A stretch of 64,000 nucleotides of DNA, from contig JALXBP010000117.1 of the NCBI GenBank assembly GCA_026991395.1, forward strand, positions 29,458-93,457, given 5' to 3'. Source of the DNA: Anaerolineae bacterium. GTDB lineage: Bacteria; Chloroflexota; Anaerolineae; B4-G1; SLSP01. A model generated the notes under the pieces. It saw only the letters and a program-made list of their open reading frames with translations, was not told the DNA's origin and did no database searches. Below, in pieces: positions 14,470-24,540 of this stretch. The position numbers were made by a program, and so were the translations under genes. Numbering within the stretch: the stretch's first letter is position 1; the number at the start of each line of letters is the position of its first letter.

Positions 14470-15798
14470 TTACCGCCCCCAGAAACGGGCGGCGACCTCC
14501 TCCCGCAGGCGGTCGCGCAGACAGGCCAGAGGGAAGCGGTGGACGATCGGCTCCAGGAAGCCTTGGGTGATGAGATACTCCGCCTGCGGGCGCGGGATGC
14601 CGCGTGCCTGGAGGTAGAAAAGCTGCTCCTCATCCATACGGGCAACCGTTGCGCCGTGGCTGCACTGCACATCGTCGGCGATGATCTCCAGGCCGGGGAT
14701 GGCGTGCGCACGGGCATCGGCCAGCAGCAGGTTGTTGTTCGCCTGATAGCCCTGCGTCCGCTGCGCCTCCGGCTCGACGCGGATCATCCCGTAGAAGACG
14801 GTGCGGGCCTCGGCAGGGAGCACATTGCGGAAGAGGAGGTTGCTCGTCGTCCGAGGAGCGCGGTGGTGCTGATAGGTGCTCTGGTCGATCACCTGACCCT
14901 GCCTGCCAAAGATGAAGCCGTACATCTCACCACGCGCCTCCTCCGCCAACAGATCGGTGCGCAAGAAATCCTTGCTCATCGCGCTGCCCAGCCCGCCGTT
15001 GAGCCAGAGGAGACGGGCACCGGCCTCGACCTGGGCATTCTGCACACTGACGGCGTAACGGCGATCGCCCCAATGCTGCAGGGAAGCGTAACGCACCAGC
15101 GCCCCTTCGCCTGCGTAGATCTCCACCACCTCCACGCCGAGGGCGGGGGTCGTCTCCCGCGAGAGGCGGTCCTGCATCAGCGTCAGCCGCGCGCCAGGCT
15201 CCACGATGACCAGCGTGTGGTGCAAGCCGACGCCGCCGTCCTCCTCGTAGACGACGAGCGACTGCAGCGGACGCTCGATGCGCCCCCCCCTGGGGACGTA
15301 GATGAAGGTGCCGCCGTGCCACAGGGCGGCGTGGAGCGCGGTAAAGCGATTGAAGTCGGGGCGGGCCCACATACCGCGCATCCAGTGTTCGCGGATGAGG
15401 TCGCCGTGGGTGTGGAGGGCGCGATGCAGATCGGCGAGGACAACGCCCTGCGACTGCAGGCGCGGGTCGAGATCGACATAGCGCTGCTCACCGTTGTGAT
15501 GGAGCAGGAGGCCGGCACTCAATGCCTGGGGCGAGAGCGGCTGCACCCAGCAATCGGGCCACACCTCGTCCCGCGCAACGGTCTCGTCGCCGAGGGCAAG
15601 CCGCAGTTCGTCCAACGGGAAGCGTTGCAGAGGCATCCGACGCCACGCCTCTTCCTTGCGCGAGGGCCAGTTCATCCGTTCGTACAAAGTCCAGGCCGCA
15701 AGACGCGCTTCACGCATCCAGGCAGGTTCGGCGTAATAGTCCGAAAGCGCCTCCACGGCCTGCCGACCAATCGCGAGCGTGCGTCGTTTCGTCATCAT
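14470..15798 (-). CDS. sufD: Fe-S cluster assembly protein SufD
   Basis: 442 aa; SufB/SufD-family C-terminal beta-helix; stop/start overlap with sufB. Confidence 0.9.
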
Positions 15799-17198
15799 CC
15801 CACCGATCCCTCCATCTGAAGCTGCACCAGGCGGTTCAGCTCGACGGCGTACTCCATCGGCAGCTCCTTGACGAACGGCTCCAGGAAGCCGTTGACGATC
15901 AGGGCGGAGGCATCGGCCTCGCTCAGGCCGCGGCTCATCAGGTAGAAAAGCTGCTCCTCGTTGATGCGGCTGACCGTCGCCTCGTGCTCGACCTGCGCCT
16001 CGTCCTCGGCCACGTTGATGTAGGGGTAGGTGTCGGAGCGGGCCTGGGGGTTGAGCAGCAGGGCATCGCAGACGACCTTCGCCTGCGCCCCTTGCGCACC
16101 GCGATTGATGCGCACGAGACCGCGGAAGGCCGAGCGCCCGTTCGCCTTGCTGATCGACTTGGAGGTGATGACGGAGGAGGTCTCCGGCGCGAGGTGGATC
16201 GCCTTCGCCCCAGCGTCGAAATACTGATCCTGTCCGGCGAAGGCGATGGAGAGCACCTCACCGTGCGCCTTGCGCCCCTTGAGGACGACGGCAGGATATT
16301 TCATCGTTACGCCGCTGCCCAGATTGCCGTCCACCCACTCCATTCGCCCCTCCTCCTCGACGACGGCGCGCTGCGTGACGAGGTTGTAGACGTTGGTGGA
16401 CCAGTTCTGAATCGTCGTGTAGCGGGCGTGCGCCCCGCGCTTGACGAAGATTTCGATCACGCCGGTGTGGAGCGCGGCGGTGGAGTACTGCGGAGCGGTG
16501 CAGCCCTCGATGTAGTGGACATCGCTCCCCTCATCGACGATGATGATCGTCCGCTCGAACTGACCCAAGGACTGGGCGTTGATGCGGAAGTAGGCCTGGA
16601 GCGGTATCTCCACGTGGACGTGAGGCGGGACATAGACGAAGCTTCCGCCCGACCAGAAGGCACTGTTGAGCGCGGCGAACTTGTTGTCGGCGATGGGGAC
16701 GACCTTGCCGATGTGCTCGCGCACCAGGTCGGGATATTCGCGCACGGCGGTATCCATATCCACGAAGATGACGCCGTATTTCTCCCACTCCTCCTTCAGC
16801 GAGGAATAGACCGATTCCGAGTCGAGTTGTGCCTCCACCCCCGCCAGGAATTTGCGCTCCGCCTCCGGGATGCCCAGCCGCTCGAAGGTCTCCTTGATCG
16901 AGTCGGGCACATCATCCCAACTGCGGGCCTCCTGCTCGACCGGCTTCATATAGTAATAGAACTCGTCGAAGCGGAGGCTGCTCAGATCAACGCCCCACGT
17001 GGGCATGGGCATACGGAGGAAGGTCTCCAGGGCCTTCAGGCGGAACGCCAGCATCCACGGCGGCTCGCCCTTGACGGCAGAGAGTTCACGGACGATATCC
17101 TCGCCCAGGCCGCGGCGGACGGTGTGCGCGTAGTCAACCTCCGTCGTGAAGTCGTATTGCGCCTGATCTTTCAGTTTGTGCAGGTCATCGTGCGCCAT
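15795..17198 (-). CDS. sufB: Fe-S cluster assembly protein SufB
   Basis: 467 aa; highly conserved SufB sequence ([21 protein letters not shown]...[35 protein letters not shown]). Confidence 0.95.
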
Positions 17199-17995
17199 CA
17201 GGCCACCTCGGCTTCCAACCAGGCGTAGCCCTCCGCTTCCAGCTTCTCCACCAGCGACGCCCCGCCCGATTGCACGATGCGCCCCTCGTAGAAGATGTGG
17301 ACGAAGTCGGGGACGATGTAGTTGAGGATACGCTGGTAATGGGTAATAACGAGCAGCCCCAGATTCAGTTCCGCCTGCAGCCGATTGACCCCCTCGGCGA
17401 CGATGCGCAGCGCGTCGATGTCGAGGCCGGAGTCGGTCTCGTCGAGCACGGCGAACTTCGGCTTGAGCAGCGCCATCTGCAAAATCTCGGCCCGCTTCTT
17501 CTCGCCGCCGGAGAAGCCCTCGTTGAGGTAGCGGCGCAGGAAGGCCTTGTCCATCTTCAGCTTGGCCAGCTCCTCGTTCACTTCTTGGCGGAAGGCCCGC
17601 GCGGGGATGAGGTGGGCGTTGAGACGATTGTTGCCCGCCTTCCGCGCCGCTTCGGTGTAGCCACGGACGGCGCTCACCGCCGAGCGGAGGAAGTTGTAGA
17701 GCGTAACGCCCGGCACGGCGACCGGGTACTGCATCGCCAGGAAAAGCCCCTTGCGGGCACGTTCATCGGGCGAAAGGCCGAGCAGGCTCTCCCCATCGAG
17801 GAGAATCTCTCCCTGCGTAACCTCGTACTTGGGATGCCCCATCAGCGTGTAGGAGAGGGTGCTCTTGCCGGAGCCGTTCGGCCCCATCAGCGCGTGGGTC
17901 TCCCCCGTGTGGATGGTGAGGTTGACCCCCTTGAGGATCTCCTTCCCCTCAACGGCGACGTGCAAATCACGGATCTCCAACGTGTGGTCGGCCAT
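17198..17995 (-). CDS. sufC: Fe-S cluster assembly ATPase SufC
   Basis: 265 aa; Walker [13 protein letters not shown] signature [12 protein letters not shown], Walker [13 protein letters not shown]; RBS AAAGGAG 5 nt upstream. Confidence 0.95.
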
Positions 17996-18135: not shown

Positions 18136-18804
18136 TCAGGCCAGAAGCCCCTGGAGGGCCTGGAGCAGGGCCTCGGTAACCGCCTCGATGGGACGGTTGC
18201 CGTCGATCTCCACGAGCACGGCCTTGGCGCGATAATAATCGACCAGCGGTGCGGTCAGTTCGCGGTAGACCTTCAAGCGGTTGCGGACGGTCTCCGGCTT
18301 GTCGTCATCCCGCTGGTAGAGTTCGGCCCCGTCGCGATCGCAGCGGTTATCGTCCTTGGGCGGATTGAACGTAACGTGATAGGTCGCGCCACAGACGGGA
18401 CAGATGCGCCGCCCGGTGATCCGCTCGACGATGACGGCATCGGGGACGACGAAGTTGACGGCGCGGTCGATGGCTAGGCCCTTGTCCGCCAGCGCCGCAT
18501 CGAGGGCCTCCGCCTGCGCGATCGTGCGCGGGAAGCCGTCTAAGATCGCCCCCCTGGCACAATCCGGACGTGCCAGCCGATCGAGCACCATGGCGATGGT
18601 GATGTCGTCGGGGACGAGATCGCCGCGATCCATATAACTTTTCGCTTTCAGCCCCAGGGGGGTCTTGTTCTTCAGATTGTAACGGAAGAGGTCGCCGCTG
18701 GCGACGTGCGGCAGGCCAAGGCGCTCTTGCAGGATGTCGGCCTGGGTGCCCTTCCCCGATCCGGGCGGGCCTAACAAGACGATGTAAACGGGTTTCGTGG
18801 TCAT
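18136..18804 (-). CDS. adk: adenylate kinase (Zn-lid type)
   Basis: P-loop GPPGSGKGTQA, LID with CPVCG...CDRDG. Start taken at second Met (GGAGG SD 4 nt upstream); alternative start 18807. Confidence 0.9.
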   Translation of the reverse strand: MTTKPVYIVLLGPPGSGKGTQADILQERLGLPHVASGDLFRYNLKNKTPLGLKAKSYMDRGDLVPDDITIAMVLDRLARPDCARGAILDGFPRTIAQAEALDAALADKGLAIDRAVNFVVPDAVIVERITGRRICPVCGATYHVTFNPPKDDNRCDRDGAELYQRDDDKPETVRNRLKVYRELTAPLVDYYRAKAVLVEIDGNRPIEAVTEALLQALQGLLA

Positions 18805-19144
18805 CATACCTCCTTCGTGTTATGGGCCTCGTCCTCGAGACCCGTCAGTGCTTTGTACGCCTCCCAGCTAATGAAGGAGCCGCCATCGCCGGTCTGCTCG
18901 ACGATGCGGTAGCGCCCGTCCAGCCGTACGGTGATGAAGAAGGGCGTGAAACAGCGCCCGTCCATCACCTCCTTACGCAGGAGGAAGCCGCCGTGTTCCC
19001 CGTCGCGCTGCAGATCGTACCGCTTGTCGGCGCGGATCATCACGGGTGCGCCGCAGCGATCGCACGTCAGGTAGAAGTAGAGACCGTGCGGGTCGTGCGG
19101 CTCAGCGAGCCGAGGACGGAGGCGGGAGAAGAGTTTCCTGAACA
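18804..19144 (-). CDS. small hypothetical protein (113 aa) with CxxC motif
   Basis: ATG rc of 19142-19144 preceded by perfect AAAGGAG SD (5-nt spacer). [118 protein letters not shown]-type overlap with the adk start; overlaps the rnhA 3' end by 43 nt. In the ORF track it is buried inside the 196-aa frame 18804..19394. Confidence 0.5.
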
Positions 19145-19632
19145 TCGTGCTCCTTTCGTTCGTAGCCCTCATCAGGGGGCAAGTCAGCGCGGGAAGCGGC
19201 CTCCCGCGCCAGGGAATCACAGCGCTCGTTATCCACGTTGCCGTCGTGCCCCCGCACCCAGACGAAGCGAACCTCGTGCCGCTCGCAGAGGCGCAGCAGT
19301 TCCTCCCACAGGTCCGGATTGAGCGCCCGCTCCTTGCCGTTGCGCATCCAGCCTCGCGCCCGCCAGCGCCGCGCCCATCCCTTCTCCATCGCATCGACCA
19401 GGTAACGCGAATCGGTGTACACCGTTACCCGACACGGCTCCTTCAGGGCCTTCAGCCCCTCGATAGCCGCACGCAGTTCCATCCGGTTGTTGGTCGTATG
19501 GCGAAAGCCGCCGGAAAGCTCCTTGCGATGGCCTTTGTAGCTCAGGATAACCCCGTATCCCCCGGGGCCGGGATTGCCCAAAGCGCTCCCGTCGGTGTAG
19601 ATCGTGACGGCCTTCTTCGCCTTCGCGCTCAT
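19102..19632 (-). CDS. rnhA: ribonuclease HI
   Basis: 176 aa; [22 protein letters not shown]...[14 protein letters not shown]...[11 protein letters not shown]...[18 protein letters not shown], catalytic DEDD residues present; about 20-aa C-terminal extension. Confidence 0.85.
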
Positions 19633-20988
19633 ACGACGTCGTAGATGCTGCCGCCGATGAACTCGCGGATGTGCGAGGTCGGCGGGATGACCGATTCCTC
19701 GTAAACCGGCGTGACCGCCTCCAGCAGGCGATGGACGCGCCTGGCCCGCAGGTAGGCATCGACGTGATAGGGATCGTCGCGATAGCGCTCCACCCAGGCG
19801 CTGAAGTCCTCGAAGAGGCGGGCACGCATAATCGGCAGTTCATAAGGCACGGCACTGTTGATGATGTAGTCCGCCGAGTTGACGTAGGGGATGATGTTGC
19901 GCAGCTCGCTGCTGCGCACGTAGTGCCAATGCTCCAGCGTCCGCCGAGGGCTGTAGCCCCGTGTGCGGGCATCGCGCACCATCCGCCGCATCAGGCGCAG
20001 ATCGGTGAAGCGGATGAACTGATTATCTGGCCCCTTCATCTGCAAGAGCGTTTCGATGTAGAGGCGGAACTTCTGCTCATCGGGGATCGTCTCCGTCATC
20101 GCTGGGTAGAGGCCGTGCAGACTGTCGATGAGGATGATCTCCCCCTCGTGCAACTGCATCGGCGTTACATCGTCATAGCGGCGGCCGGCCTTGAAGTCAT
20201 AACGGGGGATACGCACCTCCTCCCCGGCGATCAGGCGCTGCAGGTGCTCGTTGATCAGGGCCAGATCGAGGGCCTGAGGCGTCTCGAAATCGTAATCACC
20301 GAACTCATCGCGGGGATGTTTCTCCAGATCGAAGAAGTAGTTGTCCACATTGAGCGCCACGAGGCTCAGGCCCTCGCGGCGGAGATGCTCGCCCAGCTTG
20401 ATCGTCGTCGTCGTCTTGTTGGAGGAGGAAGGCCCGGCGATGATCGCCACACGCACCTCGTCCCGCCGCTCGATGATCATCCGCGCGGCCTGCGCGATGT
20501 CCTGCTCGTAGCAGGCATCCGATTCGGCGACGATCTGGGCAAACTCGCCGCGGGCAACGCGCTCGTTCAGCCGATAGACGGTGTAGAGATTGTGATCGAC
20601 CGTCCAGACGAGGATTTCCCACAGCTTGCGGTAGGGGATGTTCTCGGGGTCGCGCTCCGACTCGCCCCGCTCACGACGTTTGCGCCGTCGCGCACGGTCG
20701 GCACGGTAGAGGATGTACGCCTTGGCCGTCCGCGCGTGGCCGTTTTCGATGAGCACTTTCTCCACGATGTCCTGGATATTCTCGACCGTCGGAAGATTGT
20801 CGGCACTGTAGTTGTTTTCCAGAATGGCGACGACCTGATCGGTGAGCCGCTCCGCCGTCTCGCGGTCCCGTCCGCCGACGGCGATGGCGGCACGGTAGAT
20901 GGCGTTGGTGATACGCTGCCGATTGAAGGGGACGATCGCGCCGTTGCGTTTGACGACGTAAGGTATCTTCTCCGACATGCGACCTCCT
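19629..20988 (-). CDS. ATP-cone domain fused to uridine kinase/phosphoribulokinase-family nucleoside kinase
   Basis: Real start ATG rc of 20986-20988 with GGAGG SD. The 814-aa ORF in the track is an upstream in-frame shadow. N-terminal ATP-cone ([36 protein letters not shown]), then P-loop [18 protein letters not shown] and Udk/PRK-like core ([27 protein letters not shown]). Confidence 0.8.
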
Positions 20989-21080
20989 TCATCTGCGAAA
21001 GGCTCAGCATTTTCATTATACCCTCGGAAGGAGGGGGTGGCAATGCACCCTTGCCGGAGCGCGAGGCCGAAAGAGGACGA

Positions 21081-21102
21081 GGGGGCTTCGACGGAAGCCC
21101 CC
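21081..21102 (-). terminator. hairpin (GGGGGCTTC-GACG-GAAGCCCCC) downstream of the sugar ABC permease operon
   Basis: 9-bp perfect stem 20 nt beyond the permease stop at 21122 on the minus strand; weak T tract. Confidence 0.4.
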
Positions 21103-21121
21103 TCGCGCGGTACAACGCGGG

Positions 21122-21964
21122 TTATCCCTTCACACCGCCCAGCGTCAGGCCCGATTCCAGGTAACGTTGCAGGCTCAGGAAGACGAGGAGCGTCGGCACG
21201 GAGATGAGGAGCGCACCGGCAGCGAAGAGTCCCCAGGGAATCTCCATGTCCTGCGCCAGATGTGTCAGGCCGACCGGCAAGGTGAACATCTCCTCCTTGC
21301 CGACGAGCATCACCTCCGCCATAATGTACTCGTTCCATCCGGCCAGGAAGCCGAAGAGCGCCGTCACGGCCAGCGCCGGACGGGCCAGCGGCAGGCCGAT
21401 CTGCAGGAAAGCCTGGAGCGGCGTCGCCCCGTCGATGAGCGCCGCCTCCTCGATCTCGATGGGGATGGTATCGAAGTAGCCCTTCAGGTTCCAGGTGGTG
21501 AAGACGAGCGTACCGGTGGAGTAGGCCAGGATCAGTCCCCAATGCGTCCCGAAGAGGCCCAGCGAGCGCAGGATTTGGGCAATCGGCACCAAGGCGAGGA
21601 TGCCGGGGAAGGACTGGATGGCCAGCAGGAGGATGAGCGCCGTCTCCCGCCCCTTGAACTGGAAGCGGGAGAAGGCGAAAGCCCCCGTCGTCGCCAGCGA
21701 GACGCAGAAGACCGTCGTCAGCGTCGCGATGAAGAGGCTGTTTTTCAGCCAGGTGAGGAAGGGCATATCGAAGAGGATGGCGTGGAAGTTCTCCCACGTT
21801 ACCTCCACCGGCAGGAACATCCCCACCAGATTGAGCGTCAACAGGCGCTGTCCGGGCCGCAAGGCGGCGAGGAAGACGAACCAGATCGGGTAGATGGCGA
21901 TGAAGACGGCGATGATCAAGACCAGATAGAGCAGCACCAGGGTCAACCGGCTCGGTCTTCTCAT
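21122..21964 (-). CDS. carbohydrate ABC transporter permease (MalG-like, CUT1)
   Basis: 280 aa; 6 TM helices; EAA loop region (EEAALIDGATPLQAFLQIGLPLARPAL). Confidence 0.85.
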   Translation of the reverse strand: MRRPSRLTLVLLYLVLIIAVFIAIYPIWFVFLAALRPGQRLLTLNLVGMFLPVEVTWENFHAILFDMPFLTWLKNSLFIATLTTVFCVSLATTGAFAFSRFQFKGRETALILLLAIQSFPGILALVPIAQILRSLGLFGTHWGLILAYSTGTLVFTTWNLKGYFDTIPIEIEEAALIDGATPLQAFLQIGLPLARPALAVTALFGFLAGWNEYIMAEVMLVGKEEMFTLPVGLTHLAQDMEIPWGLFAAGALLISVPTLLVFLSLQRYLESGLTLGGVKG

Positions 21965-23133
21965 TGGTAGGCTCCTTTCGTGATCTTCGTGAAGCGCAGG
22001 CTGAAGAGCGTGGCGAAGAAGAGGAGGATGAAGATGACCGTCGCATAGGCTCCTGCGTCCGCATATCGATCACCGCGGAAGAGCGTCTTGTACCCGTAGA
22101 TCATCACGAACTCCGTAACGCCGGGCTTCCCCGCTCCGCGGATGGGGCCGCCCGCCGTGACGAGCCAGACGGTGTTGAACATCTGGAAGGTGGTGATGGC
22201 GCTGAGGACGATGGCGGGCATCACCGCCGGTCGGAGCAGGGGCAGCGTGATGCGGGTCAACTGCTGGAACCACGTCGCCCCGTCCACCTCCGCCGCCTCG
22301 TACTGATCCTGCGGGATCGATTGCAAAGCCCCCAGGATCACGACCATGAAGAAGGGATAGCTCAGCCAGATGTTGATGACGACGACGGCGACGAAGGCCC
22401 AGATCGGGTCCTGCAGCCAGGCCGGGCCCTGGATGCCGAAGAGCTTCAGCACCTGATTGATCGTCCCTTGCTCCGTGCGGAAGAAGAACTGCCAGATGAG
22501 CGCCGTGATGTAGGAAGGCACCGCCCACGGGAAGATGAGCAGCGTCCGCCACGCCCCCTTGGCCTTGATGTGGCGATTGTTGAGAATGAGCGCCAGGATA
22601 AGCCCGAAAAGGAAGAAGAAAGGGATACAGGCAAGCACGTAGAGGAAAGTATGGAACATCACGATGAAGAAGTCGCTGGCGTCGCTAAGCAAAGCTATCG
22701 CCTCGTTCGCCTTGACCACGACCCAGAGCACAGCGCTCACCGCCATCCCAACCGGCCACCAGTACCAGGTTGACGGTGGGCTGAGGGACTTTTCCTTCAC
22801 GCGGCGCACCGCCCACGCGACGAGCAGGAGCGGCGCGATAACGATGAAGAGCCGCAGCCACGCCTCCAGCGCCTCCTTCGTGACCAACGGCCCGAAGATC
22901 TCCTGGTAGTTGCCGAGCAGCGGCTGCTGCCAGCAGTAGTGCTGCAGCGTCTTCGGGTCGCAGTGCCAGATGTCCTCCGGCGGCTTGTAATGGAAACGGC
23001 TGCGGTTGGTCAAGGAGATGAAGATGTTGTAGAGCATCGGATAGAGGCTGAGGATCGTTACGCCGATCATCGTCGGCGCGGTAAAGAGCAGGATGATCAA
23101 CCGCTTCTTCCACCCTCGGTAGGAAACCCCCAT
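21961..23133 (-). CDS. carbohydrate ABC transporter permease (MalF-like, CUT1)
   Basis: Start chosen at MGVSYRGWKK (ATG rc 23131-23133) with GGAAGGAG SD; EAA loop YEAAEVDGATWFQQLTRITLPLLRPA. Upstream 33 codons of the listed ORF lack an RBS. Confidence 0.85.
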   Translation of the reverse strand: MGVSYRGWKKRLIILLFTAPTMIGVTILSLYPMLYNIFISLTNRSRFHYKPPEDIWHCDPKTLQHYCWQQPLLGNYQEIFGPLVTKEALEAWLRLFIVIAPLLLVAWAVRRVKEKSLSPPSTWYWWPVGMAVSAVLWVVVKANEAIALLSDASDFFIVMFHTFLYVLACIPFFFLFGLILALILNNRHIKAKGAWRTLLIFPWAVPSYITALIWQFFFRTEQGTINQVLKLFGIQGPAWLQDPIWAFVAVVVINIWLSYPFFMVVILGALQSIPQDQYEAAEVDGATWFQQLTRITLPLLRPAVMPAIVLSAITTFQMFNTVWLVTAGGPIRGAGKPGVTEFVMIYGYKTLFRGDRYADAGAYATVIFILLFFATLFSLRFTKITKGAYQ

Positions 23134-23238
23134 AAGCTCCTTCCCCCTTTCGAAGAAAGCCCGTCTGCACGGCGCAGGCGGGCTTTCTCCATACGCGGCG
23201 GCGTGAGCCAGAAGCCTACGCCGCCTGTTCACGCCGCC

Positions 23239-24540
23239 TTACTGCATATTGGCGATGCACTCCTCGATGGCCGCCTGGGCCGCGTCCATCGCCTCCTTCG
23301 GCTCCTGCGAGCCGTTCCAGATGGCGGTCGTCGCATCACCGACAGGCCCCCACTGGCAGTCGATGTAGGGATGGTTGGGCATAGGCGTGCCGCGGTTCAG
23401 CGAAGCGCCGAAGCCGGCAATCGTCGGGATAGCCTGGACTTCGGGGTCGTTGAGCGCGTCGGAGTTGGCGGGGATCGTCTTGTTGACCAGGGAGAGGCGC
23501 TTCTGCACCTCGGCGGTGCCGAAGTACTTCATCACCTCGATCGCAGCCTGGTCATGTCCGCGATCGACGGCGTTCTGCGTCAGCATGAAGAGCTTGATGC
23601 CGACGAAGGGGCTGCCCATCGGCGCGATGCCGTAGTTGATGCCCGCGTCCTCGATGTCCTTGATCGCCCACGGGCCGGTCCACCAGATCGCCGCCTGTCC
23701 CTCGGTGAGCATCGACTTGCAGATCTCGTGGCTCGTCTCGGCGGGAGCATAGGGGCGGAAGTCGGCGATCCACTGCGCGGCGGCATAGCCCTCCGGCGTG
23801 GCGAGATAGACGTTGCCCTGATCGTCGATATAACCGCCGTACTTGCTCAGGCCAAGCCCGAAGTAGATGGGCGCAACGTGATAGGCATCGGGATTGCCCA
23901 GCCCCTGATTGCACAGGTAGTACATATCGGGGTGATCCTCGCGGAATTTCTTGGCCAGTTCCATCAGGCTGTCGAAGTCATCGGGGGCGGGCAACTGATC
24001 CTCGCCGATCAGGTCCTTGTTGTAAACGAGCGCGATGCCCTCCTGCGACTCCGGAATGCCCCAAATCTGGCCGTTCCAGACCATCGCCTTGACGGCGGCC
24101 GGCTCGAAGTTGCTCTCCAGATAGTCCATATCGATGTAGTCATCGAGGGGGACGATGTTACCGGCCAGCGCATTGCGCCCGATCTGATCCTGCACCCACT
24201 CGATGATATCGGGACCTTCCCCGGCGGGGATGGCGACCTGCAGGGCATCGGAGAGGTTGTCCACCTGCGAGGCCTCGATCTGGATGTCATCGTGGGACGC
24301 ATTGAACTCATCGATGATCTTCTGGTACTCCTCCGCATAAGCACCACTCCAGCCATGCCAGATGGTTACCGTAACCGGCTCCGGCGTAGCCTCCTCCGTC
24401 GGGGCCTCGGTTGGCTCCTCGGTCGGAGCCTCGGTCGGGGCCTCGGTGGCCGGAGCCTCGGTCGGCTTCTGACCGCAGGCAACCAACAGCATGCTGGCCA
24501 CGACCAGCAACGAAAGCAGTGCGAAAAGCCGCTTTTTCAT
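23239..24540 (-). CDS. carbohydrate ABC transporter substrate-binding lipoprotein (MalE-like)
   Basis: 433 aa; lipoprotein signal MKKRLFALLSLLVVASMLLVAC, TEAPTEEP linker repeats, SBP family 1 core. Confidence 0.9.
   Translation of the reverse strand: MKKRLFALLSLLVVASMLLVACGQKPTEAPATEAPTEAPTEEPTEAPTEEATPEPVTVTIWHGWSGAYAEEYQKIIDEFNASHDDIQIEASQVDNLSDALQVAIPAGEGPDIIEWVQDQIGRNALAGNIVPLDDYIDMDYLESNFEPAAVKAMVWNGQIWGIPESQEGIALVYNKDLIGEDQLPAPDDFDSLMELAKKFREDHPDMYYLCNQGLGNPDAYHVAPIYFGLGLSKYGGYIDDQGNVYLATPEGYAAAQWIADFRPYAPAETSHEICKSMLTEGQAAIWWTGPWAIKDIEDAGINYGIAPMGSPFVGIKLFMLTQNAVDRGHDQAAIEVMKYFGTAEVQKRLSLVNKTIPANSDALNDPEVQAIPTIAGFGASLNRGTPMPNHPYIDCQWGPVGDATTAIWNGSQEPKEAMDAAQAAIEECIANMQ

Follow-up and report, generated by a model that had tools for sequence, protein, structure and literature searches.

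What does an adenine-nucleotide sensor do when it stands in front of a P-loop kinase? The question is raised by a gene on the minus strand of a 64,000-nucleotide stretch of an Anaerolineae bacterium (Chloroflexota; assembly GCA_026991395.1, contig JALXBP010000117.1, positions 29,458 to 93,457), which at its full length is called the window here. The gene encodes an ATP-cone followed by a kinase of the phosphoribulokinase (PRK)/uridine-kinase fold, and we call it the cone-kinase gene. The ATP-cone is the classic switch by which ATP and deoxyadenosine triphosphate (dATP) act as master effectors of ribonucleotide reductases (RNRs) and NrdR. To our knowledge, cone mechanisms have been worked out so far only for RNR and NrdR, and none on a kinase. 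A sequence-only reading of the window had proposed nucleotide-sensing control of a salvage kinase. In this study, we favour, with some reserve, an adenine-nucleotide-gated kinase that is Udk-like, whose acceptor is probably nucleoside-like and whose base recognition is unlike that of the uridine/cytidine kinases.

The fusion itself was examined with the two Pfam models to which the sequence-only reading had pointed, and both scored far above their gathering scores. The ATP-cone model PF03477 covered residues 7–96 (profile positions 2–87 of 88) with 90.8 bits (gathering score 25.8; E 8.2e-26), and the PRK/uridine kinase model PF00485 covered residues 180–375 with 61.4 bits against 22 (E 1.3e-16). 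The ATP-cone lying N-terminal to a Udk/PRK-fold P-loop kinase in this gene is real and not a chance match, and the P-loop string that had been quoted is present at residues 182–191. Only these two domains passed the curated Pfam cut-offs in the protein; no receiver, DNA-binding or TusA/SirA-like domain was detectable, and neither a zinc ribbon nor an NrdR model was matched in Pfam and NCBIfam. The cone-kinase gene is the sole carrier of an ATP-cone in the window. Conservation was read from a set of 15 orthologues (68–93% identity) and from a diverse set of 22 sequences from several phyla (33–72% identity). The gene is divided as follows.

19629..20978, minus strand: cone-kinase coding sequence, 449 amino acids, with the TGA stop at 19629..19631
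20691..20960, minus strand: ATP-cone domain, residues 7–96, with K10/R11 in the KRNG motif and Y91, R95 and R99 on helix 4
20637..20690, minus strand: basic linker, residues 97–114, the block of lowest model confidence, with identity averaging 13% across the diverse set
20454..20636, minus strand: three-helix N-extension of the kinase module, residues 115–175, common to the 'nucleoside kinases' of the threonyl-tRNA synthetase (ThrRS)-N type
19854..20453, minus strand: P-loop kinase core of the PRK/uridine-kinase fold, residues 176–375, delimited by PF00485, alignments and invariant columns; it holds D212, E232, Y260/F262, G265, the insertion 310–323, the arginine lid (R328/R331/R332/R335/D336/R340) and H350-W351-H352
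20409..20435, minus strand: Walker A GPSSSNKTT, residues 182–190
19632..19853, minus strand: C-terminal extension of the kinase module, residues 376–449, with the REFIGGS motif and invariant D407, R411 and E439

An AlphaFold2 monomer model built from the 15 orthologues had a mean predicted local distance difference test score (pLDDT) of 84. The cone was modelled as a beta-hairpin (strands 7–9 and 15–17) and four helices (20–33, 39–56, 65–78 and 82–103), with a pLDDT of 74–93 over residues 1–80 and 72–77 over residues 81–100. After the cone, the model places three helices (114–128, 134–142 and 146–170), a Rossmann-like P-loop core, and helices 380–399 and 403–420. When the model was compared with the PDB by Foldseek, the core matched UCK2, Thermus Udk and UCK1 with template modelling scores of 0.6–0.67 over approximately 205–220 columns, and the N-terminus matched the cones of 5olk (L. 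blandensis NrdB), 5im3 (P. aeruginosa NrdA) and 8p2c (P. copri NrdD). No solved structure combining both modules was among these PDB matches.

Is the cone able to bind its ligands? The closest solved cones by sequence were 5olk (E 2e-17) and 5im3 (E 3e-16; family profile), followed by 8p23, and all three structures have cones of the two-nucleotide-binding subclass (PMC11226230). In the P. copri enzyme (PcNrdD), Lys7, Arg8, Arg87 and Arg91 neutralise the triphosphates, and Tyr83 stacks on the outer adenine (PMC11226230). The HMMER alignment gave K10, R11, Y91, R95 and R99 of the window protein as the counterparts of PcNrdD Lys7, Arg8, Tyr83, Arg87 and Arg91, respectively. All five were invariant in the orthologues (15/15). 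In the diverse set, the dominant residue was kept at K10, R11, Y91 and R99 in 20–21 of the 22 sequences, and position 95 was Arg in 11 and Lys in 7. The window protein also shares with the two-nucleotide RNR cones (5olk, 5im3 and 8p23) the KR(N/D)G motif, the Tyr-x3-Arg-x3-Arg pattern on helix 4 and the same fold. Judged from its sequence, the cone is of the subclass that takes two adenine nucleotides, and it looks ligand-competent.

In this subclass, dATP induces a symmetric cone–cone dimer via helices 3 and 4. The dATP-dependent interface of L. blandensis NrdB (LbNrdB) consists of Asp73, Met80, Lys89, Ile92, Ile93 and Arg95 (PMC5794259), and the counterparts in the window protein are D70, I77, K86, I89, L90 and R92, respectively. 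LbNrdB shows a cone functioning at a transplanted N-terminus, and its interface residues are kept in the window protein. The RNR cones are joined to an RNR subunit, whereas the cone of the window protein is joined to a P-loop kinase.

The mean identity among orthologues was 74% for the cone and 77% for the kinase core. The cone is thus about as conserved as the kinase core, which indicates that it is under purifying selection, and the N-terminal conservation on which the sequence-only reading had staked its proposal beforehand was found. These results bear directly on the idea that the cone is a degenerate structural appendage without regulatory ligand binding. RNRs with multiple cones can carry non-functional ones, as P. 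aeruginosa NrdA does, and such inactive extra cones offer a parallel; in addition, the KR motif is lost in some distant members of the family, reading HS in P0187 and DR in P0262. However, the window protein keeps all five contact residues, K10, R11, Y91 and R99 are each kept in at least 90% of the diverse members, the rate of change of the cone is no higher than that of the catalytic core, and canonical cones typically score in the range of the 90.8 bits seen here. We regard a degenerate cone as hardly credible.

The second question is what kind of kinase stands behind the cone. The core aligned with Thermus Udk and human UCK1/2 at the P-loop, at D212 within DNYF, at PxYDF (Y260 and F262) and at the RLxRRxxRDxxxRG lid. 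K188, T189, D212, E232, F262, R328, R332, R335, D336 and R340 were invariant in all 22 diverse members, and Y260 and R331 were each kept in 21. Because the catalytic and lid residues are invariant or nearly so, the module looks catalytically competent, an apparently intact phosphotransferase. A nucleoside-like acceptor is probable because D212, Y260, F262 and R328 are retained.

The protein could instead be a plain Udk orthologue, the uridine-cytidine kinase (EC 2.7.1.48) of the organism, to which a cone has been added, so that dATP and ATP would exert feedback on pyrimidine salvage. JGI gives many members the annotation 'uridine kinase'. The best kinase matches are indeed Udk/UCK in both sequence and fold (3asy/3w8r and UCK1/UCK2), with a shared Walker A, a catalytic Asp in D-x-(F/Y)-(Y/F), Y260/F262 in PxYDF, ribose-side R328 and the arginine lid. 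However, the NCBIfam Udk equivalogs were not reached: TIGR00235 gave 82.8 bits against a cut-off of 220.3, and NF004018 gave 83.9 bits against 180. The base-selecting position is Gly265 in the window protein, and in the diverse set it is Gly in 20 and Ser in 2 of the 22 members; its counterpart in the cytidine-only Thermus enzyme ttCK is Tyr93 (wild type, 3asy), mutated to His in Y93H (3w8r), and UCK1 also has His there. The base-recognising His of UCK2 is His117. The ribose/base motif FDHP of UCK reads FETP here, so that Asp84-His85 of UCK is replaced by Glu232-Thr233. Canonical Udk is approximately 210 residues long and lacks the C-terminal extension of residues 376–449. Compared with Udk/UCK, the window protein adds the cone, extensions of 60 residues at the N-terminus and 74 residues at the C-terminus of the module, a 14-residue insertion (310–323) and an HWH motif in which H350-W351 are invariant; approximately 125 residues are extra in clade-specific extensions. 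D407, R411 and E439 are invariant within the C-terminal extension. Because of Gly265, Glu232-Thr233 and HWH, base recognition must differ from that of the uridine/cytidine kinases. On these scores and positions the kinase is not a Udk orthologue, and we consider a plain uridine-cytidine kinase unlikely; the kinase belongs to a separate, long 'nucleoside kinase' clade.

The relatives of the kinase module extend this picture. An exhaustive representative search gave 969 clusters (50% identity) at E<=1e-30. Besides cone proteins of approximately 440–490 amino acids, the top matches were mostly proteins of approximately 550 amino acids that aligned only at query residues ~120–447; there were dozens of such representatives, with alignments starting at query residues ~116–137. 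One of them, P0173 (~550 amino acids), shared 41% identity between query residues 133–447 and its own residues 243–549 (BLASTP, E 2e-69), and its cluster includes a member from Clostridia named 'nucleoside kinase'. The N-terminal 240 residues of P0173 resemble the N1/N2 editing module of ThrRS (1tje, E 3e-11; weak TIGR00418 matches). This ThrRS-like domain was seen only in the ~550-residue relatives, and the window protein has the ATP-cone in its place. Since the relatives align only over residues ~120–447 and have different N-termini, the kinase module comprises about residues 115–449 and forms a clade of its own. Across the ~550-residue 'nucleoside kinases' (such as the Clostridia MBR3134508.1 cluster), the module is homologous throughout and shares GPSSS(G/S/N)KTT, YDFE(T/S), the insertion and REFIGGS; the differences are the ThrRS N1/N2-like domain there against the cone here, and, for example, RWP there against HWH here.

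The same kinase module was found behind one cone, behind two cones (P0121, 554 amino acids), behind a calcineurin-like phosphoesterase domain (Metallophos) and a cone (P0123, 692 amino acids), and most commonly behind the ThrRS-N-like domain; the N-terminal sensor is therefore modular. A metagenomic protein of 713 amino acids (P0231) joins a shikimate-kinase-like domain to the kinase module. The Metallophos and shikimate-kinase-like fusions were set aside as hints of function, being too few and possibly gene-calling artefacts.

The T. maritima protein TmUK, which consists of a ThrRS domain and an NK domain, formed no uridine monophosphate (UMP), either at full length or as four N-terminal truncations (delta 226, 247, 261 and 290), and ATP hydrolysis alone was detected, in the presence of uridine (PMC10248530). 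TmUK and a T. pallidum protein have a three-domain ThrRS-N architecture like that of the ~550-residue relatives. From its architecture and truncation coordinates alone, we infer that TmUK belongs to the sister clade; the cluster look-ups of the ~550-residue representatives returned no Thermotoga name. That a protein of sister-clade architecture formed no UMP is a further point against a plain Udk, and it calls for caution in naming the window protein a uridine kinase. Of the earlier proposal, the sensing by the cone is plausible, given its conservation and the presence of K10, R11, Y91, R95 and R99, but the identity as a uridine or nucleoside salvage kinase is not established, in view of the two failed Udk cut-offs, Gly265, the distinct clade and the TmUK result.

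The same data could be explained by a nucleotide-gated ATPase or regulator, or by a kinase whose acceptor is anionic or macromolecular; the cone would then tune signalling or quality control. TmUK displayed ATPase activity and no kinase activity, the sister clade bears a tRNA-editing-like domain, and a signalling or quality-control role has already been speculated for the ThrRS-N fusions. H350, W351, R355, D407, R411 and E439 are invariant and have no Udk counterpart, and the legacy NCBI name 'response regulator SirA' would also fit a regulator. Against this, D212, Y260, F262 and R328 are invariant or nearly so, which is difficult to account for unless the acceptor resembles a nucleoside; receiver, DNA-binding and TusA-like domains were not detected by Pfam; and TmUK may have been negative because an effector was lacking or the acceptor was not the right one. 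We believe that this explanation is quite improbable.

For the adenine-nucleotide-gated Udk-like kinase that we favour, a mechanism can be sketched by analogy with RNR and NrdR. Udk-type kinases are oligomers. Binding of ATP or dATP at the cone would change the cone–cone pairing or the docking of the cone on the kinase, and the changed contacts would shift the oligomeric state, with the kinase on in the presence of ATP and off in the presence of dATP. A phosphorylation step related to nucleosides or nucleotides would thereby be tied to the ATP/dATP pool. The identity of the ligand, the direction of regulation, the oligomerisation and the phosphate acceptor are things that we only infer. More tentatively, and with doubt prevailing, the family may represent a third independent cone switch after RNR and NrdR, one that gates a Udk-like phosphotransferase acting on an acceptor other than uridine or cytidine. 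Candidates for this acceptor would be a different (deoxy)nucleoside, or a nucleotide-like anion held by the clade-specific His and Arg residues.

Precedents exist for a cone outside RNR. In NrdR, a non-RNR protein, the oligomeric state changes with the occupancy of the cone by ATP or dATP (PMC9110341). NrdR is a protein of approximately 150 amino acids with an N-terminal zinc ribbon followed by the cone, whereas the window protein has no zinc ribbon or DNA-binding module and carries its cone before an enzyme. A cone preceding a P-loop kinase is reportedly found in the archaeal 2-phosphoglycerate kinase, a precedent said to come from Aravind, Wolf and Koonin in 2000. That enzyme belongs to a different P-loop kinase family from the window protein. 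In P0121, the relative with two cones, its model NF003259 had a weak match to the cone (E 2.6e-4), and the window protein had no match to NF003259 at E<=1.

Several observations weigh against a nucleotide-gated, nucleoside-directed kinase. The AlphaFold2 model is a predicted monomer and is silent on oligomers. The cone–cone interface residues are kept only in the Anaerolineae-type subgroup, and K86 is replaced by Glu or Asp elsewhere. In the Walker A motif, N187 (20418..20420, minus strand) replaces the second Gly, and Asn is also present in a relative of 93% identity; the orthologues mostly read GPSSSGKTTT, with Ser or Ala at position 187 in a few, and the diverse set has Gly in 19, Asn in 2 and Ser in 1 of its 22 members. 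N187 may affect nucleotide affinity. By analogy with TmUK, which formed no UMP, the long clade may not be nucleoside kinases at all. In 85 related loci, analysed by tblastn of the window neighbours and by de novo clustering of the flanking open reading frames, no conserved partner gene was found, the suf and ABC genes included. Finally, a full-text literature search returned no paper on a fusion between an ATP-cone and a kinase of uridine or nucleosides.

How widespread is the architecture? According to precomputed Pfam calls, PF03477 and PF00485 occurred together in all of the best matches (120/120). When each species was represented by one genome, the scan gave at least 556 encoding loci in many phyla, so that the phylogenetic distribution for which the sequence-only reading had asked is broad. 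The best 80 of these at least 556 loci were almost all from Chloroflexota (Anaerolineae and Thermoflexales), the exceptions being three metagenome-assembled genomes (MAGs) labelled otherwise, and all had at most 75% identity; the closest named relatives among these 80 were Thermoflexus/Thermoflexales and Anaerolineae MAGs (<=75% identity). A search seeded from a distant member added Elusimicrobiota, Hydrogenedentota, CSSED10-310, Planctomycetota, Ignavibacteriaceae, Riflebacteria and Endomicrobiia to the carriers of this architecture, and Muirbacterium and Absconditabacterales have it as well. The gene is a further member of a catalogued, abundant architecture, and the protein itself is already public: a protein 100% identical to it (P0001) is present in public databases (NCBI and ENA), as is another of 93% identity.

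The members are named 'ATP cone domain-containing protein', 'uridine kinase' or 'response regulator SirA' in the databases. The last of these was rejected as a misnomer that looks propagated, no receiver or TusA/SirA-like domain having been found by Pfam. A link to phages was also rejected; the sole viral match was one IMG/VR contig with a cone-less kinase module at 34% identity.

Where does the gene begin, and how might it be expressed? The open reading frame at 19629..22073 (minus strand) has 814 amino acids, the first ~365 codons of which are an out-of-frame shadow over the ABC permease gene at 21122..21964. The sequence-only reading was right that an upstream shadow of approximately 360 amino acids had been merged with the gene, and its end for the gene, 20988, was 10 nucleotides too far. 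The true start is the ATG at 20978..20976, and the equivalent Met is the start in all of the orthologues aligned. Three expression signals lie upstream.

20983..20990, minus strand: Shine-Dalgarno sequence GAAGGAGG, 4 nucleotides before the kinase ATG, read from the sequence
21015..21043, minus strand: sigma-70-like promoter TTGCCA-17-TATAAT, 11/12 matches, approximately 37 nucleotides upstream of the kinase ATG
21079..21105, minus strand: terminator-like hairpin with a 12-bp G+C stem, a CGUC loop and a U-rich tail, directly after the ABC permease stop

The promoter scan found 3 sites, compared with 0.6 expected in shuffles. Since the hairpin closes the upstream ABC-transporter operon and the promoter-like site follows it, the kinase gene would start its own transcription unit. 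Owing to its interrupted T-run, the hairpin escaped the scan for consensus terminators. An Rfam scan of the whole window gave no family above the gathering score, and a riboswitch leader is therefore not indicated.

The genes around the cone-kinase gene are as follows.

19102..19632, minus strand: rnhA (RNase HI; Pfam RNase_H, E 4.7e-45), whose ATG overlaps the kinase stop as ATGA
18804..19145, minus strand: small open reading frame of 113 amino acids (MFRKLFSRL..., CxxC at LTCDRCG), between rnhA and adk
18136..18807, minus strand: adk with a zinc lid of the Cys4 type (Pfam ADK, E 2e-52), the last gene of the kinase–rnhA–small open reading frame–adk run
15795..17995, minus strand: sufB and sufC (Fe-S assembly), downstream of adk, with their own promoter-like site
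21122..24540, minus strand: sugar-type ABC transporter of three genes (a solute-binding protein and two permeases), upstream of the kinase
21122..21964, minus strand: ABC permease (Pfam BPD_transp_1)

The kinase and rnhA are probably translationally coupled in this genome. The start of the small open reading frame overlaps the 3' end of rnhA by 44 nucleotides, and its stop overlaps the adk start (ATGATG); it had no Pfam match and no tblastn match in the 85 related loci. A weak promoter-like site lies within the 5' end of adk (18704..18676). The usual position of adk is in the ribosomal-protein/secY cluster, and here it lies elsewhere. The co-directional arrangement with rnhA and adk that had been pointed out holds in the window, with its ATGA overlap, but the order is not conserved in the related loci: rnhA followed the kinase in only 2 of the 85 (the close relatives L020 and L043), and adk was adjacent in none. 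Deducing the function from the linkage with rnhA and adk was rejected, the arrangement being local and lineage-specific. Recurrent neighbours were confined to subclades: in 10 loci lexA lay upstream in divergent orientation, and in 10 a gene for a prolyl oligopeptidase lay downstream. The lexA loci form an Anaerolineae subclade (L002, L003, L006–L010, L012, L019 and L021), in which approximately 190–265 bp separate lexA from the kinase gene downstream of it; the intergenic regions that the two share contained no GAAC-N4-GTTC box.

For the window, the gene is now correctly delimited, its start is corrected, and its functional label is more cautious. For the databases, thousands of proteins are named 'uridine kinase', 'nucleoside kinase' or 'response regulator SirA' in a clade of unproven substrate, which is an annotation problem. 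The family would offer a simple soluble system of approximately 50 kDa in which to study the control of an unrelated enzyme by a transplanted cone. If the more tentative reading, that of a third cone switch, is true, its non-uridine acceptor would explain why the sister 'three-domain uridine kinase' has no uridine kinase activity, and the cone-kinases of Chloroflexota, Elusimicrobiota, Ignavibacteria, Hydrogenedentota and other phyla would constitute a widespread and so far unrecognised control point of nucleotide-pool homeostasis.

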